64,000 nucleotides of DNA. Source: an uncultured Ruficoccus sp. (GTDB lineage: Bacteria > Verrucomicrobiota > Verrucomicrobiia > Opitutales > Cerasicoccaceae). The translations under genes were made by a program, and so were the position numbers. Location of the stretch: positions 256,001 to 320,000 of the forward strand of contig OZ223481.1 of assembly GCA_965140785.1 (NCBI GenBank), given 5' to 3'. The notes beneath the pieces are model-generated. The model was not told the origin of the DNA and did not search any database. It worked only from the letters and a program-made list of their open reading frames with translations. Numbering within the stretch: position 1 is the stretch's first letter; each line of letters opens with the position of its first letter. This document shows positions 5,721-40,097 of the stretch, piece by piece.

Positions 5721-6623
5721 CTAGCGGATCGCCTCCCGGTGATGCAGGTAGCGTGCGAGCGCGTACCCGAGGGATTCATGGGTGGTCAGGCGCAGCAAAT
5801 CGACCTGAGAGCGGGTGAAACCTTCACGTAAATTGTCCATAAAGTCACTCATTTGTGACTTATAGGCCTCGCGGGTGGTCTCGGCCCAGGAGATGACTTC
5901 GCGCCCGGTCTCGATGTCGTGAAAACGCGCCACGCCCTCCATCGGCAGGTCGAGTTCATCGGGGTCGAGCACCTGGATGGCGAGGGTGTCGCAGTGGTGG
6001 AGGCGGAAGCGCTTGAGGTGGTCGGGCAGGACGCTTTCGCCCTCCAACATGTCGGAAATAAAGATCACGATGCTACGCTGGCGCAGTTGATTACCAAAGG
6101 TTTGCAACAGGGCGTCGTGATGGGCCGGCCCCGCCGGTTCCAGTCGCGTGAGGGCTTGCAGGACACGGTTGAGCTGGCCGGTGCGGTGGCCGGGGGGGAC
6201 GACTTCGCGCAGCGTGTCGTTGTAGGCGAAGAGGCCGACGTTGTCGCCCTGGCGGGCGGCCATGTAGGCAAGGCAGGCCGCCGTCATGCAGGCGTAGCGA
6301 AACTTCGTGCAGGCCGCCCGCTCGCCCCGGTAGTCCATGGAGGCGCTGGCGTCGAGCACGAGGTGGAGGTTCATGTTTGTCTCCTCCTGATAAACTTTCG
6401 TGTAGAGCCGGTCGGTGCGGGCCAGCAGCTTCCAGTCGAGGTACTTTAAATCCGCCCCCGGCGTGTAGTCGCGGTATTGCAGGAACTCCGTGCCGAATCC
6501 GTGGAAGAGGCTGCGGTGCATGCCCGAGAGAAACCCCTCCACCGCCGAGCGGGCCAGCAGGGCGTAGTTGCCCAATTGTGCCAGGTGGGCGGGGTCGAGC
6601 AGGTCGTGAACGCTGGGCGGCAT
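5721..6623 (-). CDS. DUF58 domain protein (MoxR-associated)
   Basis: GMHRS...GFGTEFLQYRDYTPGADLKYLDWK and LDASASM motifs. Confidence 0.92.
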   Translation of the reverse strand: MPPSVHDLLDPAHLAQLGNYALLARSAVEGFLSGMHRSLFHGFGTEFLQYRDYTPGADLKYLDWKLLARTDRLYTKVYQEETNMNLHLVLDASASMDYRGERAACTKFRYACMTAACLAYMAARQGDNVGLFAYNDTLREVVPPGHRTGQLNRVLQALTRLEPAGPAHHDALLQTFGNQLRQRSIVIFISDMLEGESVLPDHLKRFRLHHCDTLAIQVLDPDELDLPMEGVARFHDIETGREVISWAETTREAYKSQMSDFMDNLREGFTRSQVDLLRLTTHESLGYALARYLHHREAIR

Positions 6624-6639: not shown

Positions 6640-7644
<1,005 letters not shown>

Positions 7645-26855: not shown

Positions 26856-29618
26856 ATGTTCCGTGTTAGCGCCGCCTGTCTCGGGCTTTCGCTAGCCCTC
26901 CTTGCAACGCCCCTTTTGGGGCAGGTTTCCTTGCCCTACGAAACGGATTTCGAAGCGGCTTCCGGCTACGGCGTGGATGATCCGCCGAGCGTGGCGCCTT
27001 GGGTCGTAGGCGGCTCGGGGGCCTTGGTGACGAGTGCCGACTCCGCCTCGGCAGCGCAGGGAGTTTTACTCCCGATCGATGAAACAGGATTTTTGCGGGC
27101 GAATTTTTCGAGCAGCCAGGCGGGGGTGGTGACCTTTGTGGATTTCTACCTCAAGCCCATGGCCGGGCCGGTGGAGGAATTGCCGGCGGTTTCGAGCGAT
27201 GTTACCTCCGCGATGACCGGTGCGGCTGAATCCGGCGGCGTCGGCTGGTTTTACGCAGTGGAAGGCGACGGCCTGGGTGGGGGGCAGTGGCAGCAGATCC
27301 CGCGGCCGTTTGCGCTGAGCGACGGTGTATCCACGAACTGGATACGCTTGACTTACCGCCTCGATTATGCGACCAAGACCTGGGATCTCTACCTGGACGA
27401 CGATCTGGTGGCGACCGACTTGGGGTTCGTGGACGATGTGCTGGAGAGTTTGAGCGAATTCCGGCTCAAGGGCGGCGGGCTGGCCCCGGTTTATTTTGAT
27501 TTTTTCTACGCCGGTTATGAGAACCCGCTTTTCCTCGACAGCGACAGCGACGGGATGAGCGACGCCTACGAGAGCGCCAACGGCCTCGACCTCTACGCCG
27601 ACGACCGCTATGGCGACCACGATTTCGATGGCATCACCAATGTCCACGAATTCCTCTACGACCTGGAGGCGGGCAACCCCGACACGGACGGGGACGGTGT
27701 GCACGATGGCTGGGAATTTTCCTTCGGGGGCGACCCGGCGGTGGCGGATAATTACGTGCTCAGCCAGCTGCCCTACGTGGAGGGTTTCGAGAGCCACCCG
27801 GACGCGAACGTCACGAGCGGGGGAGGGTGGTCCTATCAGGGCGGCACCGAGCCGCAACTGAGCAGCGACGAGGCCGCGAACGGCACCCACTCGGTGCTGA
27901 TCAATCCGCTCGGCGCGGGCACGGCGCTCTACAATTTATTCACGGCCACGCCCGACACCATTGTTTGGGTGGACCTGGCGCTCAAGCCCGGAGCGTTGAG
28001 TGAGGAGCCGGCGCTGAGCGCGGCGACCTCGGCGGGTTTTTACTTTGGCGAGGATGGGCGGCTGCGCGTCTTCGACGGGGCGGAGTTGCCCGCTGGCGCT
28101 TGGGAGGCCCTGACGCACGAGGCGGTCGAGATGGACGCCTGGCAGCGCCTGACGGTGCAGCTCAATTACTCCACCCAGCGCTGGGCGATTTATTTGAATG
28201 GCGTGCGGTTGGCTGCGGGGCTCGGCTTCGCCAATCCGGTGCCGTTTTTCCAGTCCTTTCGTGTGACCCAGTCTGAGGGCGGGGAAACTTACCTCGACAA
28301 TGTGCAGGTCAGCTACACCGAGCCGGCTGGGCTCGATAACGATGGAGACGGCTTGACCAATGTTTGGGAAATTGCGGCGGCGTCATATGGCTACGATCCG
28401 GAGAACGCCTACTCGGCGGACCCGACCGGCATGGTACGCGACGATTATTATGACCTCGATGGAGACGGCCTGGGGACGCTGGCCGAACTCGCCGCGGGCA
28501 CGGCGTACACGAACCCCGACACCGATGGCGACGGCGTGCTGGACGGGGCCGAGGCTTCCTTGGGCGAAGACCCGCTGGTGGCGGGAACTTTTAATCAACT
28601 AACCGCCGACAGCAACGACATCTATACGTGGACCGCCGGTTTCGAAACCGCCGAGGGCTACAGCGTGGCCGCGCTCGACGGCCAAGACCTGTGGCGGACG
28701 AACTCCTCGTCAGCGACGGTGACGTCTGCTCAGGCTGAGGGCGGGGCGCAGTCCGTGTCGCTGGAATCCGGCACGGGCGAAGCGGTTACCGCCGAGCAGT
28801 GGCTGGTGGCTCCCTCCGGCGCGGAAGTGGTCTGGGTCAGCTTTTCCTCCAAGCTCGTCGGCGGCGATCTGCCGGACCTGTCAGAGCGCGAAACGCTCGG
28901 AGCGGCTTATTTCACGGCGAGCGAAGCAGGAACGCTCTGCGTTTATGACGGTGCGTCGGCCCAGTGGCAGGACACCGCGCTGGCCGTGGATGCCGCCAGT
29001 TGGGTCCGCTTCGATGTGCGCCTCGACTATGTATCCAAAACCTGGGACATCTGGGTTGAGGGCAACGAAGTCGCCACCGACCTCGGTTTTGCTAATACCG
29101 CGATCACCGCCTTTGCCCGGGTGCGCTTCGAGCAGTTGCGTGCCACTGAGGCCCAGGGCTTTATCGATTCGCTCAGTATTTCCACCGCCATGCCCGCCAG
29201 CCTCTCGCCCTGGCCCCACGTCTCCGATGCCTGGAAACAGCAGATCGTCGATGCCGACCCGAACGACGCCATTACCGACCCCTCGCAGGTGCTGGCCGGA
29301 GACGACTTCGACGGCGACGGCCAGACCAACGAGGAAGAGTTCCGGCAGGGCACATCCCCGACCAGGGCCGATGCCGATGTCCAGTACTACGTCTTCGGCG
29401 ATATCGGCAACGATGTGTACAACGGTCTCAGCCTCTACCCCGGCCAGCCGACCAGCCTGCACGGCCCCAAGGCAACCCTCTCCGGCGCACTAGCCGCCGC
29501 CCCCGATGGCAGCCGCATCCAGATGGAAAGCGCCACCGCCGCCTACGACGAGTCCACCCTCTCGCTCGCAGGCAAAAACCTCACCCTGCGCCCCCACGGC
29601 GACGTCGTCCTGCAATGA
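26856..29618 (+). CDS. Secreted protein with three ConA/LamG-like repeats and TSP3-like DxDxDG calcium-binding repeats
   Basis: Signal peptide. Three units ending WIRLTYRLDYATKTWDLYLD, WQRLTVQLNYSTQRWAIYLN and WVRFDVRLDYVSKTWDIWVE, each followed by DxDGDG repeats. Confidence 0.8.
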   Translation: MFRVSAACLGLSLALLATPLLGQVSLPYETDFEAASGYGVDDPPSVAPWVVGGSGALVTSADSASAAQGVLLPIDETGFLRANFSSSQAGVVTFVDFYLKPMAGPVEELPAVSSDVTSAMTGAAESGGVGWFYAVEGDGLGGGQWQQIPRPFALSDGVSTNWIRLTYRLDYATKTWDLYLDDDLVATDLGFVDDVLESLSEFRLKGGGLAPVYFDFFYAGYENPLFLDSDSDGMSDAYESANGLDLYADDRYGDHDFDGITNVHEFLYDLEAGNPDTDGDGVHDGWEFSFGGDPAVADNYVLSQLPYVEGFESHPDANVTSGGGWSYQGGTEPQLSSDEAANGTHSVLINPLGAGTALYNLFTATPDTIVWVDLALKPGALSEEPALSAATSAGFYFGEDGRLRVFDGAELPAGAWEALTHEAVEMDAWQRLTVQLNYSTQRWAIYLNGVRLAAGLGFANPVPFFQSFRVTQSEGGETYLDNVQVSYTEPAGLDNDGDGLTNVWEIAAASYGYDPENAYSADPTGMVRDDYYDLDGDGLGTLAELAAGTAYTNPDTDGDGVLDGAEASLGEDPLVAGTFNQLTADSNDIYTWTAGFETAEGYSVAALDGQDLWRTNSSSATVTSAQAEGGAQSVSLESGTGEAVTAEQWLVAPSGAEVVWVSFSSKLVGGDLPDLSERETLGAAYFTASEAGTLCVYDGASAQWQDTALAVDAASWVRFDVRLDYVSKTWDIWVEGNEVATDLGFANTAITAFARVRFEQLRATEAQGFIDSLSISTAMPASLSPWPHVSDAWKQQIVDADPNDAITDPSQVLAGDDFDGDGQTNEEEFRQGTSPTRADADVQYYVFGDIGNDVYNGLSLYPGQPTSLHGPKATLSGALAAAPDGSRIQMESATAAYDESTLSLAGKNLTLRPHGDVVLQ

Positions 29619-29646
29619 TACGTTTTTTATTCAACCCACGATCGAT

Positions 29647-30768
29647 ATGAAAAGCTTACTCTCTAGACTGTTGTTCATCCTCTTCATTCCCTTTGCCCTT
29701 CATGCCGATTCCCTCACCGTCGAGGGAGATCTTAACATCGAGGGCTCTCTCCGTATTATCCCGCAGACAGTTCCTGATATTGTTTCTACAGGTATGATGT
29801 ATTTCGACTTATCTACTGGTGAACTCATAGTATATAATGGTGAAAAGTGGATATCGCTTACTGAAACTGCCACTATTATCAATACCTCAGGTGGTATCTA
29901 TTCTCTATCGCTGGGAAAAGATTCATCTGCGAGTGGGGGCAGAGCCATTGCCATAGGCGCGGATGCGATTGCGAGTGGGAATAGCTCAATCGCAATCGGG
30001 CAATATGCTAATGCGGGGGCATCGAATGCTATAGCTTTGGGCTATCATGCCACAGCGAGTGGTAATTATGCTACGGCTTGGGGCGCCGGTCCAGAGGCCA
30101 GTGGTGTGGCTGCTACGGCTTGGGGTTGGACAACCGAGGCAAGTGGTGACTATTCCACAGCTTTTGGACAGAACACAGCAGCAAGCGGTGATTATTCTGC
30201 GACTTGGGGAAACTATTCAGAAGCAAGTGGTGACTACTCCACAGCTTGGGGGGAATGGGGGAGAGCTATAGGTGATTTTGCTACGGCTTGGGGTGCCGCC
30301 ACATATGCCATCGGCGACTATTCCACGGCATGGGGACATCGGACCCATGCTGAGTCGTATTCTTCTAGCGCCCTTGGGTGTTGGAATATTGGTGGCTATA
30401 CTTACTCTGATGATGGCGTTGACACCAATGATGGCGATACTCAGTGGTTCGATTTGGATCCACTCCTTGAAGTCGGAAATGGTGACTACTCAGCGCGCTC
30501 CAACGCCCTGACCGTCATCAAAAACGGCCAGACCACCCTGGAGAATAAGTATTGGGACGAAGAGATGCCCACCGCCATTCCCGCCGACCCGGACACCGCA
30601 CTGAACGGCGACCAGTCCTCCGCCGGCGAAGCCCTCGTCGTCAAAGGCCATACAAACCTGAATGGTAATCTTACAGTTCAAGGGAATGTCAGTATGCCTC
30701 GGCAGGGAGATATCTGGATGGGGGCTTTTGGCAATCCTGAGGATTCGTGGCAGCAAAGCGGCTCCTGA
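29647..30768 (+). CDS. Secreted YadA-head-like (14-aa repeat) beta-roll protein without a beta-barrel anchor
   Basis: Signal MKSLLSRLLFILFIPFALHA; about 12 repeats of type ASGDYSTAWGxxxx; ends PRQGDIWMGAFG. Confidence 0.82.
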   Translation: MKSLLSRLLFILFIPFALHADSLTVEGDLNIEGSLRIIPQTVPDIVSTGMMYFDLSTGELIVYNGEKWISLTETATIINTSGGIYSLSLGKDSSASGGRAIAIGADAIASGNSSIAIGQYANAGASNAIALGYHATASGNYATAWGAGPEASGVAATAWGWTTEASGDYSTAFGQNTAASGDYSATWGNYSEASGDYSTAWGEWGRAIGDFATAWGAATYAIGDYSTAWGHRTHAESYSSSALGCWNIGGYTYSDDGVDTNDGDTQWFDLDPLLEVGNGDYSARSNALTVIKNGQTTLENKYWDEEMPTAIPADPDTALNGDQSSAGEALVVKGHTNLNGNLTVQGNVSMPRQGDIWMGAFGNPEDSWQQSGS

Positions 30769-30860
30769 GTTCAGATACTACAGCTTCCATTTCCACGATT
30801 TCCGTCAAACAATTCAACTGCATCCCTCGTGCTTGATTCAATTTTGCGAAACTACATTCC

Positions 30861-31955
30861 ATGATCCGCCGCTTTCTCCTTTCTTTGATACTCTTCCTTC
30901 TGAGCGCAACCACTTGGGCCGATTCAGAGCCTGCAGCCTATCCCCAGTGGTGGTTAGATAGGGGAGTCGTTAATGCTCAGCCGCCCACTCCAACCGATTT
31001 CAACTATGAGGCTTGGATGCAGGCTAACTATGCCCCCGCCAACCTCGGGCAACTCAAAATGATTGCGAGTGGTGCAAAGGCCGAGCTGGACGCAGTACTC
31101 GCCCCGGTTGGCGGGGCAGGTCCAGTCATTGATAGTGTAGTGAGTTTATTTTCGACTGATCCATCAGATAACTATGCGGTGTTAAATCAAGGGCAGCTAA
31201 AATATATTTCATCGTTGTTCTTTAATAGACTGGGGGATGTCACTTTCAACGGATGGCCTGCCAATTATACGCTAGACTCTAGTACAGGATATCCGTGGAC
31301 GGAATCCGTTACCGATGACGCTCATTATGCGCCTGCGAATACTGGCCAACTAAAGTATCTATTTTTGTGGGATCTCAATGCTTGGGCGGATTCGATAGAT
31401 TACAGTACCATTGATGCAGACGGTGATGGTCTCGGTGATATTTGGGAAATTGCTTATAATCTTAGTCCCTTTGACGATGGGGGTTCTGACAGTATCAATG
31501 GTCCTAATGGAGATCCCGATGGCGATGGGCTTACGAATTTGCAAGAGTATGAGGTGGCCCAAACCTTCGCCAATGCTGCCGATCCATCACTTTTGAGTCC
31601 GCGAGCAAATGATTCAGATGGAGATGGGCGTATTGATGGCGTGGAGGTTGCCGATGGTACGGATCCAACCGATTATTATAATTTAGCATCGCCTGTGTTT
31701 AAGCGTACTCCCGTAGTCGAGGTTCTCTCTGGAGATGACCAGACGGTAGGGCCGGGTGAGATACTGGCTAACGCCATTAGTGTCAAGGTTACCGCCCAAG
31801 AGGATGGCAGCTTGCTCGTAAATGCGCCTCTATGCATCAGTCCTGAAGCTTTAGGTGCCATGGTTGGGGTATTGCCCGATGGCTCTGATTTAAAGGAATC
31901 AATCATCGTTTACACCAACGCCAGTGGGATCGCTACTTTCTACGTTAAGCCATAA
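30861..31955 (+). CDS. Secreted protein with three (N/H)YAxxNxGQLK repeats, TSP3-like repeats and a C-terminal Ig-like domain
   Basis: Signal peptide; NYAPANLGQLK, NYAVLNQGQLK, HYAPANTGQLK; DADGDG/DPDGDG/DSDGDG; SGDDQT...TNASGIAT. Confidence 0.8.
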   Translation: MIRRFLLSLILFLLSATTWADSEPAAYPQWWLDRGVVNAQPPTPTDFNYEAWMQANYAPANLGQLKMIASGAKAELDAVLAPVGGAGPVIDSVVSLFSTDPSDNYAVLNQGQLKYISSLFFNRLGDVTFNGWPANYTLDSSTGYPWTESVTDDAHYAPANTGQLKYLFLWDLNAWADSIDYSTIDADGDGLGDIWEIAYNLSPFDDGGSDSINGPNGDPDGDGLTNLQEYEVAQTFANAADPSLLSPRANDSDGDGRIDGVEVADGTDPTDYYNLASPVFKRTPVVEVLSGDDQTVGPGEILANAISVKVTAQEDGSLLVNAPLCISPEALGAMVGVLPDGSDLKESIIVYTNASGIATFYVKP

Positions 31956-32003: not shown

Positions 32004-35000
32004 ATGAATTGGACTGCTACCCTATTAACTGTTGCTTGTTGCGCACCGTTGATATCCCAATCACTGCTCGCTGACAGCCTAGTGGCCACGGCCCCTACCG
32101 AGTCTGTCGGGTCGAAATACCGGAAAATCGGACTCAATGGCTATCCGATGCCAGATCAGAAGCCGCAGAATGAGGCGGAAACTGATTATCAGGATGAGGA
32201 AACCTATATCGATGCGCTAGATCTCACATTGCGCCACAGTGTAACGGATATTTATATTCCCATTCCCGGCAGTGACCTATCGCTATCAGTGCGAAGAAAT
32301 TACAGACCGGAAACGTGGAGTGACCCAGAGGCGCAGTACTTTCTACCCGGTGAGGCCCCTGAGGATGCTTTCGGTGCTTGCTGGTCGACCAATTTGACGC
32401 CTCATGTCAAGATGGAGGCTACGCAAAGCTGCTTCGGCACAAGTAGCAGCTATAGTTTCACCCGGTACATTACAGTGGTTGATGAAAATGGGGCATCGCA
32501 TCGGTTTCTCATGCTGCTTCCTTCTGGAAATAGCTATGAGTTTTGGACTCAAAGCGTACAAAGTCCTGAAGGTTGGTGGATGACCTTTGATTTGAACACA
32601 ATACCAGACGATGCGCTTTTTTACCCCTATCCTTCTTCTGATGAGGCCTTGGATACTCTGCAAAGTAAATTGACCTATGATCCAAATGCGGAAGAACTTA
32701 CTTTTACAAAGAAATACGGGACGACTATTGTTTTTTCAGATAGTGGGTTGGGGCTCGAGGATCAGTTGAAATATACTGAAGAGGAGAATTATCTAGGGAA
32801 CGCAATTGATCAGTTTGGAATCACCAGACAGCAACTTGGTGATGTTTCTAATCACCCAAAGTTTGTCGAACCATTTGGTTCTATCAATCTAGCTCGTGGC
32901 CCGTCTCCAGTTTCATCCATTACGAGGAAGTCGTATCGTTATTTTAGGGCAGTATCTATTCAGGATCGCAATGGAAATTTCCTAAATTATTCTTATGATT
33001 CGGATAATTATACTCTGGTTCCAAATCACATATTTCTTAACGAGTCTATATTTCATGCGATCACGGTCCATCTGTCGCCAGGGAATACATTGCCTATATT
33101 AAGTGTTGAAGATCCATTGGGTAATGTAATAAGTTATGTATACAATGAAATTGGGTATACTTACATGGAAGCTAATGTAAGTTATGATAGGCCAATTGCT
33201 GTGCTAGATTATGTCGAAAAATCAGGCCCGGATGGTATAGAATGTAAGACAGATTATGACTACGTTTACAGCTTGGAGGCGGACCAAACACCACAGTACC
33301 TACAACCAATACGCGCTACAGGAAGCTTGAATCCTAAAGCTTATTGGAAGGAGCTTCCTGCCAGTCATATAGACATTGAGTCCATATCACAGATTGTGCC
33401 GGACGGCGCAGATGATGTTGAAGAGTATGAATACGCTTTTGAGTATGTGTTCAATGACCATATGGAGTCCTATGAAATAAATGATTCACCATATTCGCCT
33501 TTTATCGGTTACTATCAGTCCATTGGCCTTCCATCCCAAGTGTCGGCAGTCACCCTGCCCAATGGTTCGGAAGCAACATTTACATCTTATGGTCAGGTGA
33601 AGGCGGGTTTTGCGCACGGCGCCGGTGTAGAAACATTCGTTGATGGATACTTAGTGCCGAATGTGACTATCGTGGGTGATCGCGAAACTGTTGTTATCGA
33701 TACGGAAGGCAATGAACGGACATATCGATTTAAAAATTACGACTACATCAAATTGTACGAATATTTTACGGCTATCCCCAATTACCGTAACTTAAGAACC
33801 CCGCCTACGATCCTGTTTTATGAACTGATGGAGATCGTCCATCCGGGTAACCTTGTCGAGAAAGTTGTCTATGATAGTGAAGTTGGTAGCATGCCTATTG
33901 AGGTTTACGATGTTTACGGAAATAAAACTACTTTTGAATACGGTGAGCCTATCGAGGCTAATACGACTGTCCTGGGGGTAAACGGACAGAATAATACTTT
34001 TTCTGCCTACAGCCCCGACCCAACAAAGCAAATCAATGCGCTGGATGATGAGCAGGTCTTTGCCTACGATGTGGATCTGGATGGTGTCGCGCTGCATGCC
34101 CCTGCGGATTCATACCATCTGATGACAACGTTCATCGACGAGGAAAACCGCATAACATATACTCCTGTCGATGCATTGGGGCGTCGTGAGACTCAGGAAA
34201 TATATCAGCCGGATGGCTCAGGCGGTCATGAGCTTGTCCAGCGAACCCAGTATGAATATGGGCAAGACTTTGGTGGTATTGTCAAATACAAGGGTGTGGT
34301 GACGAGAGAGACCTTGGAGTCGCTTCCCGGGGATCCTGATTGGGCGGAGGATTTGGTAACCGAGTACACCTTGTACGATGAGGGGGAGGCGAATGGCTTT
34401 CCGGGTAAGATAAAGGAAATGACTGTCGATCCGGGAGGGCTGAATCTCAAGACAGTTTATACCTATGATGCGAACGGCAATCGGACATCGATGACGTCGC
34501 CACGTGCTTTTGATACCGCCGATCCGCTCTATGGGGGAAATTTTACGACCTACTATGTGTATGATGCCCGAAATCGCTTGACGGATATTGTTTATCCGCC
34601 GGCCTCAAGTGCGACTGATATGGGCGCGCCTCGCACGACCTATGTCTATGATTGGCGTGGGAAACAGGTTGGGGTGATTGACGAGGAGGGGGGCGTCACG
34701 GTTAAGCACTATGACGCACTGGGACGGCAAATTAAGGAGATTGTCGTCATGGGGCCTGCGTCCGGTTTTGATACGAGTGACCCCCAGACGTTTCTGTCAT
34801 ACACTCCCGATCAAGACGGGGTGATGCCAGACGATATCGTGACCTCGATGACGTATAATAATTTAAATGCAAAGCTGACGGAGACTGATCCGAATGGGAA
34901 CGTGACCGAGTTTTTTTATGACGATTTAAACCGCGTCATCGCCACCCGAAAGAGCACTGTCCGGGAAGTTGATTATACCAATGCGCAGGATCGTAATGTT

Positions 35001-38000
35001 CAGCCCATCACGTGGTTTTACTACGGGGAAAATAGCGGTTCGGGATCGATTTTTAAGGGGGAATCCTTCAAGCCAACTCATACGATTGATATGCGTGGCT
35101 ATCTGACGGTGGCCGAGTACGACGAGCTTTATCGATCGACGGCGGTTGCCCAGCAGTATGATCATCCGGTTAATATTACATCGCTTGATCCGCATGTCTT
35201 TCCATTAACCCCTCCAAGTATCGGTAGTCTGGCAGCCGCTGACTATGCTGTGACTACTTACACCTATGATGATGTCGGTAACCCCTTAACGGTTACGGAC
35301 GATTTAGGTAAGACGACAACGACACAGTACGATGCGCTTAATCGTCCAGTGAAAGTTATTTTCCAAGATACTTCTGAAGCTGAAACCAGGTACACATCCA
35401 CCGGGCTGAAGTATGAAAATGAAGATGAGCTAGACCGTTTGACGACAACGGAGTATGACGCAGCAGGACGAGCTGTTGCTGTCCTTCAACCGACGGTGTT
35501 CGATGCTGCCGCTGGCCAAGACGACACTCCGGAGACCACACAGGCCTATGATGCCAATGGCAATATGATTGCCATGACCAACCCATTGGAGGCCACTTGG
35601 AACTATGAATATGATGTGCGCGATCGCCGTATCAAAGAAATATTACCCGCGGTCGATTACATCAATGAGGCCGGAGGCTGGAGTGACGATAATCCTGTTC
35701 GGCCGGAGATTGAAACGACCTACGATAACGTAGGAAACGTGATTGCCGTCACTGATCCGCGCGATAAAACAACCCACACCCGCTACGACCCTGCGAAGCG
35801 ACCGATTTTTGTCATTTCGCCGTTGGTGGCTCTGGCCGACTCGAGCTCGCTTCGTCCGGTGGCGATTACCGAGTATGACCTCAACGGGAACATTCTTTAC
35901 CAGAAAACGGGTAGCTTGTCCGCTGGGGCTGATCCTGCTGAGGATACGCCTTCCGAGGTGCGGACAGAGGTTACGAACACCTGGGATGCGCTGAACCGGC
36001 TCACTGCCACAGAGGATGCGAATGCGATCGTGGTGCAAAATACCTACGACCTGGCCGGGAACCTGACGTCTGTCACAGACGGGGAGGAGCAGGTGACGAA
36101 ATTCGAATACGATGGGCTCAACCGCAATACCGTCACCGAGTACGCCGATGGCGAGCAGAAGGTTGTTGCGTTTAATGGGGTTAATCAGGTCACGCGCACG
36201 GATGAAAACGGGGTCGTCACCCGCTATGGCTACGATGACCGTCACCGCCTGGAAACAGTCGATTACGAGGACGATAGCTCCGTTGACAGAAGTTACACCT
36301 ACGACCTGGTAGGTAATATCCTCGGCGTGGAGGAGTCCGGTGACCATGGCGATTTGCGGAAGGTGAAGTATGTCTATGACGGTCTTAACCGCATTGGTGG
36401 GGAGAAGTCGGCCGGGCTCTGGCACGTGTACCGGTATGATTTGGCGGGTAACAGGTTGTTTGCGGGATACGGGGCTGCCCTGAGCAGTGATCCGGCTACC
36501 GTGGAGGCTGCTTACCAGGTGTCCTCGTCCGAGTTTGATACGCAGCTTCGCTCGACCTATGACGCGTTGAATCGCACCGCCACGATCTATGAGGATACTG
36601 ATGGTGACGGCACCTACACGACCGGCGAGCGGGAGAGTGGCTACCGTTATGACCTGGCGGGAAATATCCGGCAGAAGCTTCAGGCTAACGGGCACATCGT
36701 GCTCAAAACCTACGATGCGCTCGGGCGCGCCTCGGTCATCACGGGGCCCAATGGCACCGATACGCAGCCCCTCTACCGTTACGCTAACTTTTACGATATC
36801 TACGGCAACCTCAAGCGCATCGAGGAAACCTACCCCAGTGCGGCTGCGAAGATCGATGACCGCACGGTGACCAACACCTACGACGCGTCTAATCGCCTGG
36901 AGGTCGAGTCCATCACCCAGGGGAGCGACACGATTACCACGACCTACGCCTATGACGACGCGAACAACCGCGTGCTGCGCGAAGTGACGACCAACGAGAC
37001 TGTCGATGAGCGCAAGCGCTACGTGTATGAGAACGACCTGAACCAGCTCACCTACTGGTATGAGGACTGGGACGACGATGGCGCCTGGGATGAGGACACG
37101 GAGGTCAAGGTCGGCTTCACCTACGACGACAATGGCAACCGCGTCACGAGTACGCGGGTCGATGGCTCGTCCACGACCACGGTCACCTATGGCTATGACT
37201 GGGAAAACCGCCTGCTGAGTTTGGCTGAGGAGAAGCTGGTCTCCAATCAGGTCAACCTGCACGCCGGCACGCTGGCCACCGGGGAGCCGACGGCTGTCGT
37301 GACCTATCACTTTGTCGAAAATCAGGCCTATGCCTACGCCTACGATTATCGTACCCGGCGCGTGCTCCGGGACGAGTCCGGGGCGGACGGGGATTTGACG
37401 TATATTGTTTTCTCGGGCGGCACCAGCGCCCAGGAGTACACCGAGGCCGGGAGCGTGCCCGGTCTGGACGGAGCTGACACGCTGGCTGTCCAGTATGTGC
37501 GCGGGAGCGACTATGGGGGTGGCGTGGGGGGCATTCTTTATACCTTGCGCTCGGGGTCGGCCTCCTTTAAGCATTACAACAGTCGGGGCGACGTTGTTGC
37601 CGCGACCGATGGTTCTGGTTCTTTGACTTATCAGGCGGCTTACGAAGCCTACGGCAAGCACGGGGATACGTCTTCGTCGCAGGAGTGGGGCGATACGAGC
37701 GACCGCCAGCAGGCCAACACCAAAGACGAAGACCCGACGGGACTCCTGAACGAAGGCTTCCGCTACCGCGACCTGGAAACGGGCACCTTCATCACCCGCG
37801 ACCCACTCGGTTTCGTTGACGGCCCCAATGTCTACACCTACGTCAACCAGAATCCCTGGACCAAGTTCGACCCACAAGGGCTGGAGAAAAAGAAAGACAA
37901 AAAGAAACCAGAGCAGGAGGCTGATGGTAGTTCAAGCACTCAGGATGTGAAGACTGATAGTGTTGATGCGGGTACAAATCAATCTCCATCGGACTCAACG

Positions 38001-38615
38001 GATGCTACATCTGAAAAGGTCGGTAAGTTTAACGCTGCTACATCTGAGGCGACGAAAGCAAATGATTCCTCGGAATCTGCACGTTCTGAGGCAGAGCCAT
38101 GGATAAATGAAGTCCAGTTGTTTGGCGGGATAACAGGTACGATTGGGAAATTTATGTATGCTCATGGCGAGACTAACTTGGGAGTCTCAGTGCCGACATA
38201 TTCTGATGGCATTTTAAATACCATTTTGGATACAAAGTTATTTTTTCATGCTCAAGGAGCACTTATGGGTGGCGTTGGACCAGCTGCTGAACTTGGTGGG
38301 CAATTTGGAGGGGGACTGTCCTTCGATGATGTGGAATCAGGTTTATCTACGTTTAATACCATTCATTGTGAGGGACAAGGGGGTGTTGGCAGTACTTTTG
38401 GTATGGCCGTAGATGTCGACATTGAAAATACAGCTTTTTCAGGAGGAAAAGGAAGAGTTGAGGTTGGTGCTTCTGCTTATGGTGCTGCTGGGGCAGCAAA
38501 AAATGTTATGGTAGTAACCCCATCCTTAAGGGAGATATCGGATGCGTCTATAAAGGCACAAACCCAAATACCACTCATGTTACCATTGTGGAATCTGTTT
38601 GGAGGGGATGAGTGA
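32004..38615 (+). CDS. rhs: Rhs/YD-repeat polymorphic toxin with an N-terminal signal peptide
   Basis: Many YDxxGN/YDxLNR repeats; core RYRDLETGTFITRDPLGFVDGPNVYTYVNQNPWTKFDPQGL; AT-rich 243-aa C-terminal tip from 37884. Confidence 0.95.
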   Translation: MNWTATLLTVACCAPLISQSLLADSLVATAPTESVGSKYRKIGLNGYPMPDQKPQNEAETDYQDEETYIDALDLTLRHSVTDIYIPIPGSDLSLSVRRNYRPETWSDPEAQYFLPGEAPEDAFGACWSTNLTPHVKMEATQSCFGTSSSYSFTRYITVVDENGASHRFLMLLPSGNSYEFWTQSVQSPEGWWMTFDLNTIPDDALFYPYPSSDEALDTLQSKLTYDPNAEELTFTKKYGTTIVFSDSGLGLEDQLKYTEEENYLGNAIDQFGITRQQLGDVSNHPKFVEPFGSINLARGPSPVSSITRKSYRYFRAVSIQDRNGNFLNYSYDSDNYTLVPNHIFLNESIFHAITVHLSPGNTLPILSVEDPLGNVISYVYNEIGYTYMEANVSYDRPIAVLDYVEKSGPDGIECKTDYDYVYSLEADQTPQYLQPIRATGSLNPKAYWKELPASHIDIESISQIVPDGADDVEEYEYAFEYVFNDHMESYEINDSPYSPFIGYYQSIGLPSQVSAVTLPNGSEATFTSYGQVKAGFAHGAGVETFVDGYLVPNVTIVGDRETVVIDTEGNERTYRFKNYDYIKLYEYFTAIPNYRNLRTPPTILFYELMEIVHPGNLVEKVVYDSEVGSMPIEVYDVYGNKTTFEYGEPIEANTTVLGVNGQNNTFSAYSPDPTKQINALDDEQVFAYDVDLDGVALHAPADSYHLMTTFIDEENRITYTPVDALGRRETQEIYQPDGSGGHELVQRTQYEYGQDFGGIVKYKGVVTRETLESLPGDPDWAEDLVTEYTLYDEGEANGFPGKIKEMTVDPGGLNLKTVYTYDANGNRTSMTSPRAFDTADPLYGGNFTTYYVYDARNRLTDIVYPPASSATDMGAPRTTYVYDWRGKQVGVIDEEGGVTVKHYDALGRQIKEIVVMGPASGFDTSDPQTFLSYTPDQDGVMPDDIVTSMTYNNLNAKLTETDPNGNVTEFFYDDLNRVIATRKSTVREVDYTNAQDRNVQPITWFYYGENSGSGSIFKGESFKPTHTIDMRGYLTVAEYDELYRSTAVAQQYDHPVNITSLDPHVFPLTPPSIGSLAAADYAVTTYTYDDVGNPLTVTDDLGKTTTTQYDALNRPVKVIFQDTSEAETRYTSTGLKYENEDELDRLTTTEYDAAGRAVAVLQPTVFDAAAGQDDTPETTQAYDANGNMIAMTNPLEATWNYEYDVRDRRIKEILPAVDYINEAGGWSDDNPVRPEIETTYDNVGNVIAVTDPRDKTTHTRYDPAKRPIFVISPLVALADSSSLRPVAITEYDLNGNILYQKTGSLSAGADPAEDTPSEVRTEVTNTWDALNRLTATEDANAIVVQNTYDLAGNLTSVTDGEEQVTKFEYDGLNRNTVTEYADGEQKVVAFNGVNQVTRTDENGVVTRYGYDDRHRLETVDYEDDSSVDRSYTYDLVGNILGVEESGDHGDLRKVKYVYDGLNRIGGEKSAGLWHVYRYDLAGNRLFAGYGAALSSDPATVEAAYQVSSSEFDTQLRSTYDALNRTATIYEDTDGDGTYTTGERESGYRYDLAGNIRQKLQANGHIVLKTYDALGRASVITGPNGTDTQPLYRYANFYDIYGNLKRIEETYPSAAAKIDDRTVTNTYDASNRLEVESITQGSDTITTTYAYDDANNRVLREVTTNETVDERKRYVYENDLNQLTYWYEDWDDDGAWDEDTEVKVGFTYDDNGNRVTSTRVDGSSTTTVTYGYDWENRLLSLAEEKLVSNQVNLHAGTLATGEPTAVVTYHFVENQAYAYAYDYRTRRVLRDESGADGDLTYIVFSGGTSAQEYTEAGSVPGLDGADTLAVQYVRGSDYGGGVGGILYTLRSGSASFKHYNSRGDVVAATDGSGSLTYQAAYEAYGKHGDTSSSQEWGDTSDRQQANTKDEDPTGLLNEGFRYRDLETGTFITRDPLGFVDGPNVYTYVNQNPWTKFDPQGLEKKKDKKKPEQEADGSSSTQDVKTDSVDAGTNQSPSDSTDATSEKVGKFNAATSEATKANDSSESARSEAEPWINEVQLFGGITGTIGKFMYAHGETNLGVSVPTYSDGILNTILDTKLFFHAQGALMGGVGPAAELGGQFGGGLSFDDVESGLSTFNTIHCEGQGGVGSTFGMAVDVDIENTAFSGGKGRVEVGASAYGAAGAAKNVMVVTPSLREISDASIKAQTQIPLMLPLWNLFGGDE

Positions 38616-38818
38616 TGAAAACACTTATATCAGCATATATATTCTCTGGATGTCCGTTTTTGCTTATCGCTGTTTTTATTCTTATTGCTGGCGATGGTAA
38701 GCAATTAGGGATTGCAGCTTTATTCTTGGTGATTTTTTTAATTTTCCCATTGATTCCTTATTCTAGCGCTAGGCGTAAGATCAAGAATGATAAGAATAAC
38801 ACCAACGGCAGAACCTAA
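38615..38818 (+). CDS. Putative immunity protein, two TM helices
   Basis: ATG overlaps the rhs stop (TGATG); AT-rich; two hydrophobic segments and a basic tail. Confidence 0.72.
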   Translation: MKTLISAYIFSGCPFLLIAVFILIAGDGKQLGIAALFLVIFLIFPLIPYSSARRKIKNDKNNTNGRT

Positions 38819-38872
38819 CCCTATGGGTGCCAGACGAACCCGAAGAGGGGGAACCAGAAGGGGTCAGAACCA

Positions 38873-38952
38873 GAAGGGGTCATGTCAATAATTTAAATGT
38901 TGGTTGCTGTCTGACTTGTGTAGTTATTCTAAATTATTGACATGACCCCTTC
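38873..38952. repeat. 80-bp palindromic element, copy 1 (perfect 23-bp arms)
   Basis: GAAGGGGTCATGTCAATAATTTA - 34 nt - TAAATTATTGACATGACCCCTTC. A 16-bp tandem duplication GAACCAGAAGGGGTCA (38851-38882) overlaps its left end. Confidence 0.92.
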
Positions 38953-39139
38953 GGGTTCAACATCTACGTTCATGGCCGGCTTCGGTGTTGGATACAACAC
39001 CGAATTCAACGCTGATGCTAGTGGCGACTTAAGTCTTTCTGGGCATTATCTTACGATGCCATACGAGTGCGGAAGCCTTGCTGGATCAATTATGTCAGAG
39101 TCAAAAAAGAAATTTTCGGATAATGAGGATGATGAGTGA
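38942..39139 (+). pseudogene. Orphan toxin C-terminal fragment
   Basis: Gly-rich frame with an acidic end (NEDDE*), coupled to a membrane protein gene by the same GATGAGTGATGAA junction seen at rhs/immunity. Its 5' end is cut by the palindrome. Confidence 0.6.
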
Positions 39140-39453
39140 TGAATATATTGTTATATACGCTGATGCTTTTTTTTATGGGGTGGGTGCTCGTTTTTAAGGT
39201 TATTAGATTGAATGCATCTTTGTTTGGTGTTGTGTCTAATGTTCTTATGATGAATATAGCCGCGCTTTTGTGGGTTATTATTGGGTCTGTGTTAAAATTT
39301 CCTATATATACATTTAATGGGACGTTGAGTTCTTATGACTTCGTTGAGCCAGGACTGATTTTGTGTGTTATACTAACTCCTGTTAGCGTTATTTCTTTGG
39401 CTTATTTCAAATGGAAGAAGGGTGACGAGTTTACTATTCGAAAAAAGAAATGA
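39139..39453 (+). CDS. Putative orphan immunity protein, three TM helices
   Basis: Very AT-rich, three hydrophobic segments, KKK tail, TGATG coupling with GAGG upstream. Confidence 0.7.
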   Translation: MNILLYTLMLFFMGWVLVFKVIRLNASLFGVVSNVLMMNIAALLWVIIGSVLKFPIYTFNGTLSSYDFVEPGLILCVILTPVSVISLAYFKWKKGDEFTIRKKK

Positions 39454-39501
39454 TTACGGCTTGATGCCCCCCTTCGCCTTCCGTCCCGTCCCTTGAGGCT
39501 T

Positions 39502-39633
39502 GCCATACGGGCTGGCACAACTCGTCATTATGTCAAAATTGCGTCGTGGGAGAGTGAGATTGGCGAACGAATCGACGTGGCCGCGAGGCCGAGCAACTTG
39601 GGCATAATGGTCCGTTGTGCGCGAGCGTATGGC
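39502..39633. repeat. attC-like imperfect inverted repeat
   Basis: GCACAAC (39515-21) pairs with GTTGTGC (39614-20); inner CATTATGTCAAAATTGC / GCAACTTGGGCATAATG; outer GCCATACG / CGTATGGC. Confidence 0.6.
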
Positions 39634-39722
39634 CCGTTCTTTTGTTTGGGGGCGTGGCGGATGGCGGCAGGGGCTGCTCCACGGAATGGGGGTTGAATCC
39701 CCCCTCTCTTATGGGAAACCCT

Positions 39723-39799
39723 GAAGGGGTCATGTCAATAATTTAGAATAACTACACAAGTCAGACAATAACCAACATTTAAATTATTGACATGACCCC
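39723..39799. repeat. Palindromic element copy 2, inverted relative to copy 1
   Basis: Equals the reverse complement of 38876-38952 except for two adjacent spacer substitutions (GC to AT). Confidence 0.92.
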
Positions 39800-40019
39800 G
39801 TGTTATTTGACCAGCACGGTTTCGCTTTCCTCCCGGGTCATTTCGGAGGGAAGCTCCAGCGGGAGTTTAATTCGCTTATTCCCTGATCGAGCCAAATGTA
39901 AAAATGTTGCCCAAAAACAGGGGGTTTTTCTGGATTTACCCGGATTTCGTTGGACTTGGGGTCTTGAGGGGTGTTGCCTTGCAAGTCCCTATTTATCAGG
40001 GAAATCCCCAGAAATAAAA

Positions 40020-40097
40020 TGGTCGGGGCGATAGGATTCGAACCTACGACCCTCTGCTCCCAAAGCAGATGCGCTAACCAGGCTGCGCTACGCCCCG
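40020..40097 (-). tRNA. tRNA-Pro (TGG)
   Basis: Minus strand CGGGGCGTAGCGCAGCCTGGTTAGCGCATCTGCTTTGGGAGCAGAGGGTCGTAGGTTCGAATCCTATCGCCCCGACCA: cloverleaf, TGG anticodon, encoded CCA. Confidence 0.98.

Follow-up and report, generated by a model that had tools for sequence, protein, structure and literature searches.

The window studied here, a stretch of 64,000 nucleotides from an uncultured Ruficoccus sp., holds two inverted copies of a short palindrome (copy 1 at 38867..38958 on the + strand, copy 2 at 39720..39799 on the - strand), which enclose two small genes behind an Rhs gene and share their arms with a 997-bp transposase element found elsewhere in the same genome (G000). The core of copy 1 has 74 bp (38876-38949), with arms at 38876-38895 and 38930-38949 around a spacer of 34 nt (38896-38929). 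These arms are perfect over 23 nt (GAAGGGGTCATGTCAATAATTTA, 38873-38895 and 38930-38952) and reach 29 nt with one mismatch (38867-38895 and 38930-38958). In copy 2 (74-bp core 39726-39799) the arms are perfect over 20 nt and the spacer is reverse-complemented, and the two cores differ at positions 38906 and 38907 alone (GC vs AT). TTGACA reads outward in each arm, and the outer end of the left arm of copy 1 forms, together with its flank, a 16-bp tandem duplication (two units of GAACCAGAAGGGGTCA, 38851..38882). The 23-nt arms with their spacer, the inverted second copy with two substitutions, the outward TTGACA, the duplication and an ATG inside the right arm of copy 1 (38942) had been listed in a preliminary description made from the letters alone, and re-measurement reproduced each of them. 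The palindromes are real and go far beyond chance. Folded as single-stranded DNA, copy 1 reaches -27.3 kcal/mol, compared with -6.1 +/- 1.9 kcal/mol for 200 shuffled sequences (z -11), and copy 2 gives a z of -6.5. Moreover, the 20-nt arm occurs 31 times in the genome with up to three mismatches, and the reversed pattern, used as a control, occurs 0 times.

Upstream of copy 1 lies the Rhs gene (32004..38615, + strand), whose translation of 2203 aa matches Pfam RHS_repeat with an E of 1.6e-48 and which is single in the genome. Its core ends with DPQGL (37869-37883), and DNA similarity to the Rhs gene of G003, one of four sister species of the genus compared here (G001 to G004), ends exactly at 37883. 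A glycine-rich C-terminal tip of 243 aa with a GC content of 0.45 follows. The Rhs stop codon is overlapped by the ORF (open reading frame) of a 68-aa protein (38612..38818, + strand, GC 0.36), which is hydrophobic by its hydropathy profile, matches no Pfam family and is presumed from its position to be the cognate immunity protein of Rhs.

Between the two palindromes, the ORF list gives a 65-aa frame (38942..39139, + strand) that opens at the ATG inside the right arm of copy 1; upstream of this ATG, the frame runs into stops inside the copy 1 element. Its stop codon overlaps the start of a 105-aa gene (39136..39453, + strand, GC 0.35) in the 13-nt motif GATGAGTGATGAA, and an identical motif stands at the junction of the Rhs gene and its immunity gene. 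The 105-aa protein has three hydrophobic segments in its hydropathy profile and is a candidate orphan immunity protein. It belongs to no Pfam family, has only marginal matches in 400 other genomes of the order, and is itself the sole match among 5.8 billion protein clusters. The 65-aa frame was described before as the tip of a toxin. The frame itself stands, and from its position it is possibly the remnant of a toxin C-terminus, but its identity as a toxin found no support, with no match in Pfam or NCBIfam, no homologue (longer proteins were searched too) and no similarity to the main Rhs tip; BLASTP aligned the 65-aa/105-aa pair neither with this tip nor with the immunity protein of the main gene. 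The earlier remark that this orphan pair is without Rhs core was right, as no Rhs core lies outside the main gene. Most likely, the copy pair encloses what remains of a displaced Rhs tip along with the membrane immunity gene that belongs to it, where a variable island borders on tRNA-Pro. The displaced pair is suggested by its position and by the 13-nt stop/start motif shared with the Rhs/immunity junction, and by nothing else.

The 266 bp that follow the 105-aa gene (39454..39719) have a host-like GC content of 0.60, are unique in the genome and match no family. About 220 bp beyond copy 2, on the opposite strand, tRNA-Pro(TGG) (40020..40097, - strand) has its 3' end toward the Rhs island, and scanning the window with Rfam at gathering thresholds returned tRNA only. 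Similarity to the four sister species starts at the flank of this tRNA gene (39906-40020, with 39906 about 107 bp from copy 2) and is absent upstream; copy 2 therefore lies where a variable island ends. GC contents of 0.34-0.45 were measured for the Rhs tip, the two small genes and the two repeats, vs 0.60 for the genome.

The arms of the palindromes recur, inverted, at both ends of two 997-bp elements that are 99% identical to each other (C10:480076-481072 and C43:224655-225651, by contig of G000). The arms of these elements measure 20-25 nt and end in GAAGGGGTCA, and each element encodes a protein of 306 aa. This protein matches Pfam Y1_Tnp (PF01797) with 39.4 bits against a cut-off of 23, NCBIfam REP_Tyr_transpos (NF047646) with 67.4 bits and IS200 (NF033573) with 18.7 bits, and its best match among solved structures is E. 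coli TnpArep 4ER8 (E 0.02). In an alignment of six homologues, Y14-H15 (YHV motif), H60/H62 and Y102 are invariant, and the C-terminal half is conserved too. No gene of the genome other than those of the two elements matches Y1_Tnp. The earlier idea of an element like a REPIN (a hairpin-forming doublet of repetitive extragenic palindromic, REP, sequences) with an HUH transposase of the REP-associated tyrosine transposase (RAYT) kind is thus borne out by two full elements with the same arms.

Genome-wide search found ten full copies of 74-75 bp and several single arms in G000. The 74-bp copies align to the first ~37 nt of the 997-bp element and to its right arm. The short elements of sister species G003 have 180 bp, match element positions 8-116 (87-91% identity) and the right arm, and, when read directly, keep the first ~16 codons and the last codons of the RAYT gene; the short form of G001 has 104 bp. 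Since the miniatures share the ends of the parent and sister species carry their own 180- and 104-bp forms, the palindromes are internal-deletion derivatives of the RAYT element which arose independently in each species. Judged from sequence, they are non-autonomous derivatives of a RAYT-type Y1/HUH element, similar to REPINs or to miniature inverted-repeat transposable elements (MITEs).

The distribution of the arms in G000 is far from random. The 31 arms form eight clusters, and 28 of them, from all eight clusters, lie within 300 bp of a low-GC islet, defined as GC under 45% over 400 bp; the probability for a random point is 0.06. The preliminary description had anticipated that copies would not be scattered at random, and in this it was correct. 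It had also linked them to toxin loci. This link survives in part, as the arms cluster with cassettes of immunity families, but not as a link to rhs: the genome has one Rhs gene, seven of the eight clusters lie elsewhere, and among the arrays only that of the window is located behind it. The seven others comprise four arrays between housekeeping genes (with flanks such as HAD hydrolase and glutamate synthase, LacI-family regulator and GH2 genes, or NADH dehydrogenase subunit and UPF0047), two clusters beside integrase or defence-type genes, and one single arm. Outside the window, the low-GC ORFs of the arrays stand after a right arm and point the same way, and the distance from ORF to arm is often only 0-36 nt (read from coordinates, without a script). 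The C12 array illustrates this arrangement, with 0-28 nt from ORF stop to arm and 32-36 nt from arm to ORF start. The arrays hold 1-5 genes. The arms mark the boundaries of cassettes and of arrays. In the genus, they are nearly confined to small arrays that are low in GC and consist of co-oriented single-gene cassettes.

Among 18 low-GC ORFs at the arm-bearing loci of G000 outside the window, five matched Pfam families above cut-off (Imm30, DUF4274, HEPN, DUF3997 and Sel1), and a weak match to an AHH nuclease lies just upstream of the DUF4274 gene. Two of 28 cassette ORFs from the sister species were above cut-off (Imm22/DUF4284 and DUF2750, i.e. Imm16) and two were weak (Imm74 and DUF6142); Imm22 and Imm16/DUF2750 stand in tandem in G001, and the weak Imm74 match is in G002. 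PADLOC returned no match for 25 cassette proteins, and ESM Atlas gave no lead for a 212-aa cassette of the C43 array, every score being under 0.9. Homologues of the Imm30 cassette were found, among 400 genomes of the order, in one other genome, and weakly. In the available text of Zhang et al. (2012, PMC3482391), Imm30, Imm22 and Imm74 are listed in heterogeneous polyimmunity loci and DUF2750 is listed as Imm16. By their predicted gene content, then, the arrays are polyimmunity arrays, in which several genes of putative immunity families stand in tandem away from a cognate toxin.

Several arrays have mobile or foreign-looking DNA inside or beside them. In the C39 array, an IS3-family element of 1316 bp with an rve domain is inserted at C39:140866-142180, and at least 10 near-identical copies of it occur in the genome. 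On either side of the C43 array stands a 357-bp piece of a DUF932 gene's 3' end (C43:222731-223087 and 226874-227230); the two are direct repeats with 88% identity, and this suggests that the array came in, or was moved, along with part of this gene. At C10:630331-635432 (L006), genes for DUF932, a PD-(D/E)XK (Cas4-like) nuclease, an HTH_17 protein and a tyrosine integrase of 457 aa adjoin a one-cassette array at C10:629.6 kb. A block of 2 kb homologous to this DUF932 module, in two copies 97% identical, adjoins both G001 arrays (first 2.7 kb of L113 and L114), where no integrase was looked for. On a larger scale, contigs C9, C28, C41 and C44 of G000 have GC contents of 0.28-0.40, and a 30-kb stretch at C39:275701-305800 is also far below 0.60; these sequences may belong to a foreign replicon or to a large island, or they may contaminate the genome bin.

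Comparison of orthologous sites indicates what changes and what stays. Between the HAD gene and gltB, the interval is framed by arms in both G000 and G002, with a right arm lying 2-6 nt past the HAD stop and a left arm closing the other end. Between these arms G000 carries three cassettes, and its left arm is followed by a decayed RAYT start; G002 carries a single, different cassette, the one with the weak Imm74 match. The same interval has ~320 bp in G004 and ~360 bp in G001, where a 20-nt arm-like remnant lies right after the stop codon. In G003, the Rhs gene (at least 1877 aa) has a different tip and is followed by a membrane protein of 100 aa, a head (the outer end of an arm), and a left arm with an internally deleted RAYT. 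This order of Rhs, transmembrane immunity gene and RAYT remnant is the order of the window. Arms are therefore kept while the genes between them change. In addition, contig ends of G003 (on its C4, C9, C50 and C51; L117-L121) share stretches of 805 bp and 2404 bp that are 100% identical and surround the RAYT remnant and a pair of low-GC genes for 103 and 98 aa, which are either truly multi-copy or the product of a tangled assembly graph.

Most arms have a further feature on their outer side, where the last 7-10 nt of the arm and 6-10 nt of the flank are tandemly repeated 1-3 times in units of 13-20 bp. The duplication at 38851-38882 of the window belongs to this type, like four units at C12:36875-36935, three at C43:224052-224100, a further case at C43:224634-224660, and those at both borders of the G002 cassette (L116, ~6490-6540 and ~6960-7010). 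In another genus (L040), the duplication is mirrored on both sides. These tandem heads may be a footprint of cutting and rejoining by the transposase, the result of insertion beside an existing end, or replication slippage at the base of the hairpin.

Among related genomes, 24 of 41 have a RAYT homologue; within the genus it is three of five, G000 included, which is a patchy presence. A scan of species-representative genomes yielded 593 relatives, and Opitutales and other Verrucomicrobiota supply most of the best 80. There were 68 loci with at least 150 bp on both sides of the gene, and in 56 of the 68 an inverted repeat flanks the RAYT gene, as it also does in both G000 copies, G002, G009 and G026. 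A head of GGGGTC type starts 52 of the 56 repeats (one reads GGAGTC), while the inner arm varies; the loci L044, L065, L068 and L109, with the repeat headless or far from the gene, were dropped from this count. The family with GGGGTCA ends is widespread in Opitutales. Searching for the arms themselves in genome and relatives, as had been proposed, gave 31 in G000, 11 in G003, six each in G001 and G002, 0 in G004, and from 1 to 7 in three genomes from outside the genus. A metagenome scan with the 20-nt arm found one solitary arm, in a high-GC contig. At 52 RAYT loci of other Opitutales, low-GC intervals make up 5.5% within 1.5 kb of an arm vs 0.8% further out, and among the low-GC ORFs at these loci are a SMODS/SLATT pair, a KAP NTPase, DKNYY and one with a weak Imm33-like match. 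Since these conflict-type genes near the arms of other Opitutales include SMODS/SLATT and KAP NTPase, the association is with small horizontally acquired conflict genes, among which immunity genes are prominent in this genus, and not with rhs as such.

Two further observations concern the surroundings of the window locus. The genes just upstream of Rhs (window 26856-31955) carry bacterial TSP3 repeats and YadA-head repeats, and no family of type VI secretion was matched among those scanned. Near tRNA-Pro, a stretch of ~30 nt at 39901-39930 recurs at many sites of the sister genomes with 93-97% identity.

Our explanation, which we consider probable, is that the palindromes are miniatures of the 997-bp RAYT element, that the RAYT acts on them in trans, and that the shared arms let cassettes turn over between fixed arms. 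Enzymes such as TnpArep and those of IS200/IS605 elements bind and cut at hairpins in single-stranded DNA. By analogy with these, the RAYT would act in trans on each copy, binding it as a hairpin in single-stranded DNA and cutting at the conserved outer heads. New copies would then land beside existing ends, which could produce clusters and may leave the tandem duplications of head plus flank. Once present, shared arms could serve as portable recombination sites, used by homologous recombination or by the transposase, and in this way cassettes might be exchanged between arms that stay in place.

Different kinds of observations weigh against this explanation. A product of transposition is missing: we found no pair of empty and filled sites for one miniature, no circle junction and no cassette at two sites. 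The RAYT match of 67.4 bits is below the NCBIfam equivalog cut-off of 80. The RAYT copy on C43 (C43:224714-225631) has R101C at an otherwise invariant residue beside the catalytic tyrosine; the C10 copy retains the consensus Arg at 101, but its arms are more diverged. Complementarity of the arms is 17-25 of 28 positions and decays without compensating changes, and therefore many copies may be dead. Only 10 of 168 low-GC islets carry arms. In the cassettes, 12 of 18 ORFs in G000 and 24 of 28 in relatives are without family match. About half of the RAYT loci of other Opitutales have no low-GC neighbour, at least one low-GC interval being present at 26 of the 52. Some neighbours are of defence type (SMODS/SLATT, KAP NTPase) and few islets carry arms, and therefore the tie to immunity is not exclusive. 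In addition, the module of tyrosine integrase and DUF932 beside some arrays could have delivered the arrays, and the 357-bp DUF932 repeats around the C43 array likewise count against an active part of the RAYT.

In an alternative that we regard as possible, though not probable, the miniatures are passive passengers without any part in the traffic of cassettes. They would multiply locally, or be tolerated only, in dispensable acquired DNA, and the cassettes would arrive by displacement of Rhs tips or on integrase islands at tRNA genes. The uncompensated decay of the arms is in accordance with this, as are their low copy numbers in all genomes examined (6-31 in G000 and three sisters, 0 in G004, 1-7 in other genera), the position of the window array at the edge of a tRNA-Pro island, and the landing of an IS3-family element in the C39 array as well. 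The integrase/HTH/PD-(D/E)XK/DUF932 module adjoining the array at C10:630 kb and the homologous block adjoining both G001 arrays point in the same direction. On the other side, arms occur in only 10 of 168 islets, but there in groups of several, regularly at gene boundaries and in one orientation relative to the genes. Moreover, the same boundary arm is kept at an orthologous site in two species whose cassettes differ. Even if the miniatures are passengers only, their arms offer a handy marker for such arrays in Opitutales genomes.

In a stronger version of transposase action, which seems rather unlikely to us, left and right arm together define a unit that the RAYT can excise and insert again. 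Cassettes would move as composites and arrays would grow by serial insertion, as an HUH counterpart of the integron. The example unit in the window (38876-39799, 924 bp) is near the 997-bp size of the parent, cassettes are tightly packed between arms as in the C12 array, and they are single-gene, co-oriented, low in GC and strain-specific. The arrays lie between core genes and far from any toxin gene, the RAYT element itself fills a cassette slot in the C43 array, and arms form the outer borders of arrays in two species. Against such capture stands that no cassette was found in two places or with its arms in a second context, and that a search of 400 genomes of the order gave next to no homologues for two cassettes. 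Furthermore, the cassettes, which extend from a right arm to the next left arm, fall outside the element as the parent defines it, and no Y1 transposase of this kind is known to carry cargo between separate hairpin doublets. The preliminary description had proposed capture, inversion or shuffling of modules by the transposase, and we obtained no evidence for any of the three, the read data on inversion or excision of 38952-39723 being unitigs that break inside the repeats. Extending this idea, the arms might be the recombination sites of cassette arrays run by an HUH/Y1 enzyme, a third independent solution beside IntI/attC and rAID-1, with hairpins in single-stranded DNA as substrate and array borders, which have a right arm at one end and a left arm at the other, as docking site. 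We hold this to be doubtful; if true, cassettes of immunity genes and toxin tips would be collected and reshuffled by an HUH transposase.

There is little to recommend a regulatory role, in which TTGACA of the right arm would act as a -35 box for the cassette behind it (and in some cases the arm would also supply the ATG), or in which the hairpin would terminate or stabilise transcripts, so that selection on expression would maintain the repeats where cassettes start. The right arm does precede a co-oriented ORF at the arrays outside the window (read from coordinates), it is better conserved than the left arm (8 vs 16 substitutions over ten copies, counted by hand), and two ORFs start at an in-arm ATG (38942 in the window and C39:143668). 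But a scan with a consensus promoter obtained nothing from the arms (3 sites vs 3.3 expected), and 53 arms of G000 and its sisters have no consistent -10 box at 16-19 nt, with at most 4 of 6 matches and mostly 1-3, counted with a hexamer index that was one base off. No T-run follows the stem.

It is very improbable that the palindromes are integron-like attC sites or sites of a XerD-type recombinase as in rAID-1, although they have the size of attC sites and lie between co-oriented low-GC cassettes. A tyrosine recombinase adjoins only one array of G000. We rejected an integron because G000 has no integron integrase, the best match to TIGR02249 reaching 84 bits against a cut-off of 265. Sites of attC type were rejected as well, the core motifs RYYYAAC and GTTRRRY not being present at the arm ends as judged by reading, and both attC and XerD-type sites conflict with the identity of the arms as ends of a Y1 transposase element. 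A likeness in favour of such sites is that the accessible part of the preprint on rAID-1 arrays (bioRxiv 10.1101/471110) also mentions a skewed GC content and repeats between the genes. The chance that the second copy is an assembly artefact, or that the palindromes are MITEs of a DDE-type insertion sequence, is close to nil, as the unitigs of sequencing run X1, which break inside the repeats, nevertheless join each copy to unique flanks and cover 38923-39752 and 39738-39840 with zero differences, so that copy 2 is present in reads (X1 may be the source sample of the assembly), as copies lie on five contigs and in three sister species, and as the full-length element encodes a Y1 enzyme and not a DDE enzyme.

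Returning to our preferred explanation, that of RAYT miniatures whose arms stay while cassettes change, the closest known systems are the REPIN-RAYT systems ('REPtrons') of Pseudomonas and enterobacteria. In these as well, a Y1/HUH gene is flanked by an inverted short repeat, long hairpins arise from doublets of the repeat that lack the gene, and the enzyme is presumed to act in trans. Such systems are commonly portrayed as high-copy symbionts spread over the whole genome, with one transposase and an uncertain function. According to the accessible text of Bertels, Gallie & Rainey (2017, PMC5581495), typical RAYTs have about one copy per genome, and the 16-mers of groups 2 and 3 occur 57-140 times. 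By contrast, we found two near-identical RAYT copies instead of a single one, and ~31 arms in eight clusters, confined to low-GC cassette arrays and not dispersed in high copy number through extragenic space. With its two copies and its patchy presence, the gene also departs from the pattern of a single-copy transposase inherited vertically. The repeat end described in the consulted part of Di Nocera (2013) carries a GTAG or CGTC tetranucleotide tag, whereas the ends here are GGGGTCA heads and GTAG occurs only inside the spacer. The protein of 306 aa with its conserved C-terminal half and its score under the NCBIfam equivalog cut-off is a further difference. Thus, in Verrucomicrobiota this RAYT family appears to behave as a low-copy insertion sequence whose miniatures are confined to arrays of immunity and accessory cassettes.

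Elements of the IS200/IS605 type have no terminal inverted repeats and end in separate subterminal hairpins; palindromic miniatures derived from them are known as palindrome-associated transposable elements (PATEs). Our element resembles them as an insertion-sequence-like, multicopy Y1 element whose internal-deletion derivatives keep both ends, and it differs in that its two ends are inverted copies of each other. Integrons have attC sites and clusters of attC sites lacking integron integrases (CALIN arrays), which Cury reportedly described in 2016. There too, hairpin-forming imperfect palindromes separate promoterless cassettes of one orientation, but here IntI and the core motifs of attC are absent, and a Y1 transposon has these repeats as its ends.

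As arrays of genes, those described here are similar to the polyimmunity loci of Zhang et al. (PMC3482391), which are also mixed arrays of immunity genes away from toxin genes, and in the available text of that paper no palindromic repeats or RAYT genes are mentioned at cassette borders. Orphan rhs/cdi toxin-immunity modules form arrays by sequential displacement in what was accessible of Poole (2011, PMC3150448), Koskiniemi (2014, PMC3967940) and Kirchberger (2017, PMC5361080). Like them, the window has a putative remnant of tip and immunity gene behind a complete Rhs gene that has an immunity gene of its own, but its orphan is without Rhs core and is bracketed by transposon-derived palindromes. 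A 2026 preprint puts insertion-sequence sites and Xer systems beside poly-immunity clusters in other bacteria.

The nearest parallel for the arrays is rAID-1 of Bacteroidales, for which the part of the preprint available to us (Ross et al., bioRxiv 10.1101/471110) gives co-directional, low-GC arrays of orphan immunity genes with repetitive intergenic sequences, suggesting active gene acquisition. The arrays in Ruficoccus share the co-directional arrangement, low GC and repeated intergenic sequence. They differ in the enzyme, a XerD-family tyrosine recombinase at the 5' end there and a Y1/HUH transposase here, whose own ends are the repeats; in length, up to 31 genes there in the text seen and 1-5 here; and in phylum. 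They therefore offer a testable case of how orphan immunity arrays assemble outside Bacteroidales, and of whether hairpin-specific HUH enzymes play an integron-like role. Our search of the literature, which had subscription journals and supplements outside its reach, found no description of RAYT-derived repeats that delimit immunity cassettes. REPIN-RAYT systems and immunity arrays punctuated by repeats are kinds already known, and RAYT miniatures that punctuate immunity cassettes form a new variant of them.

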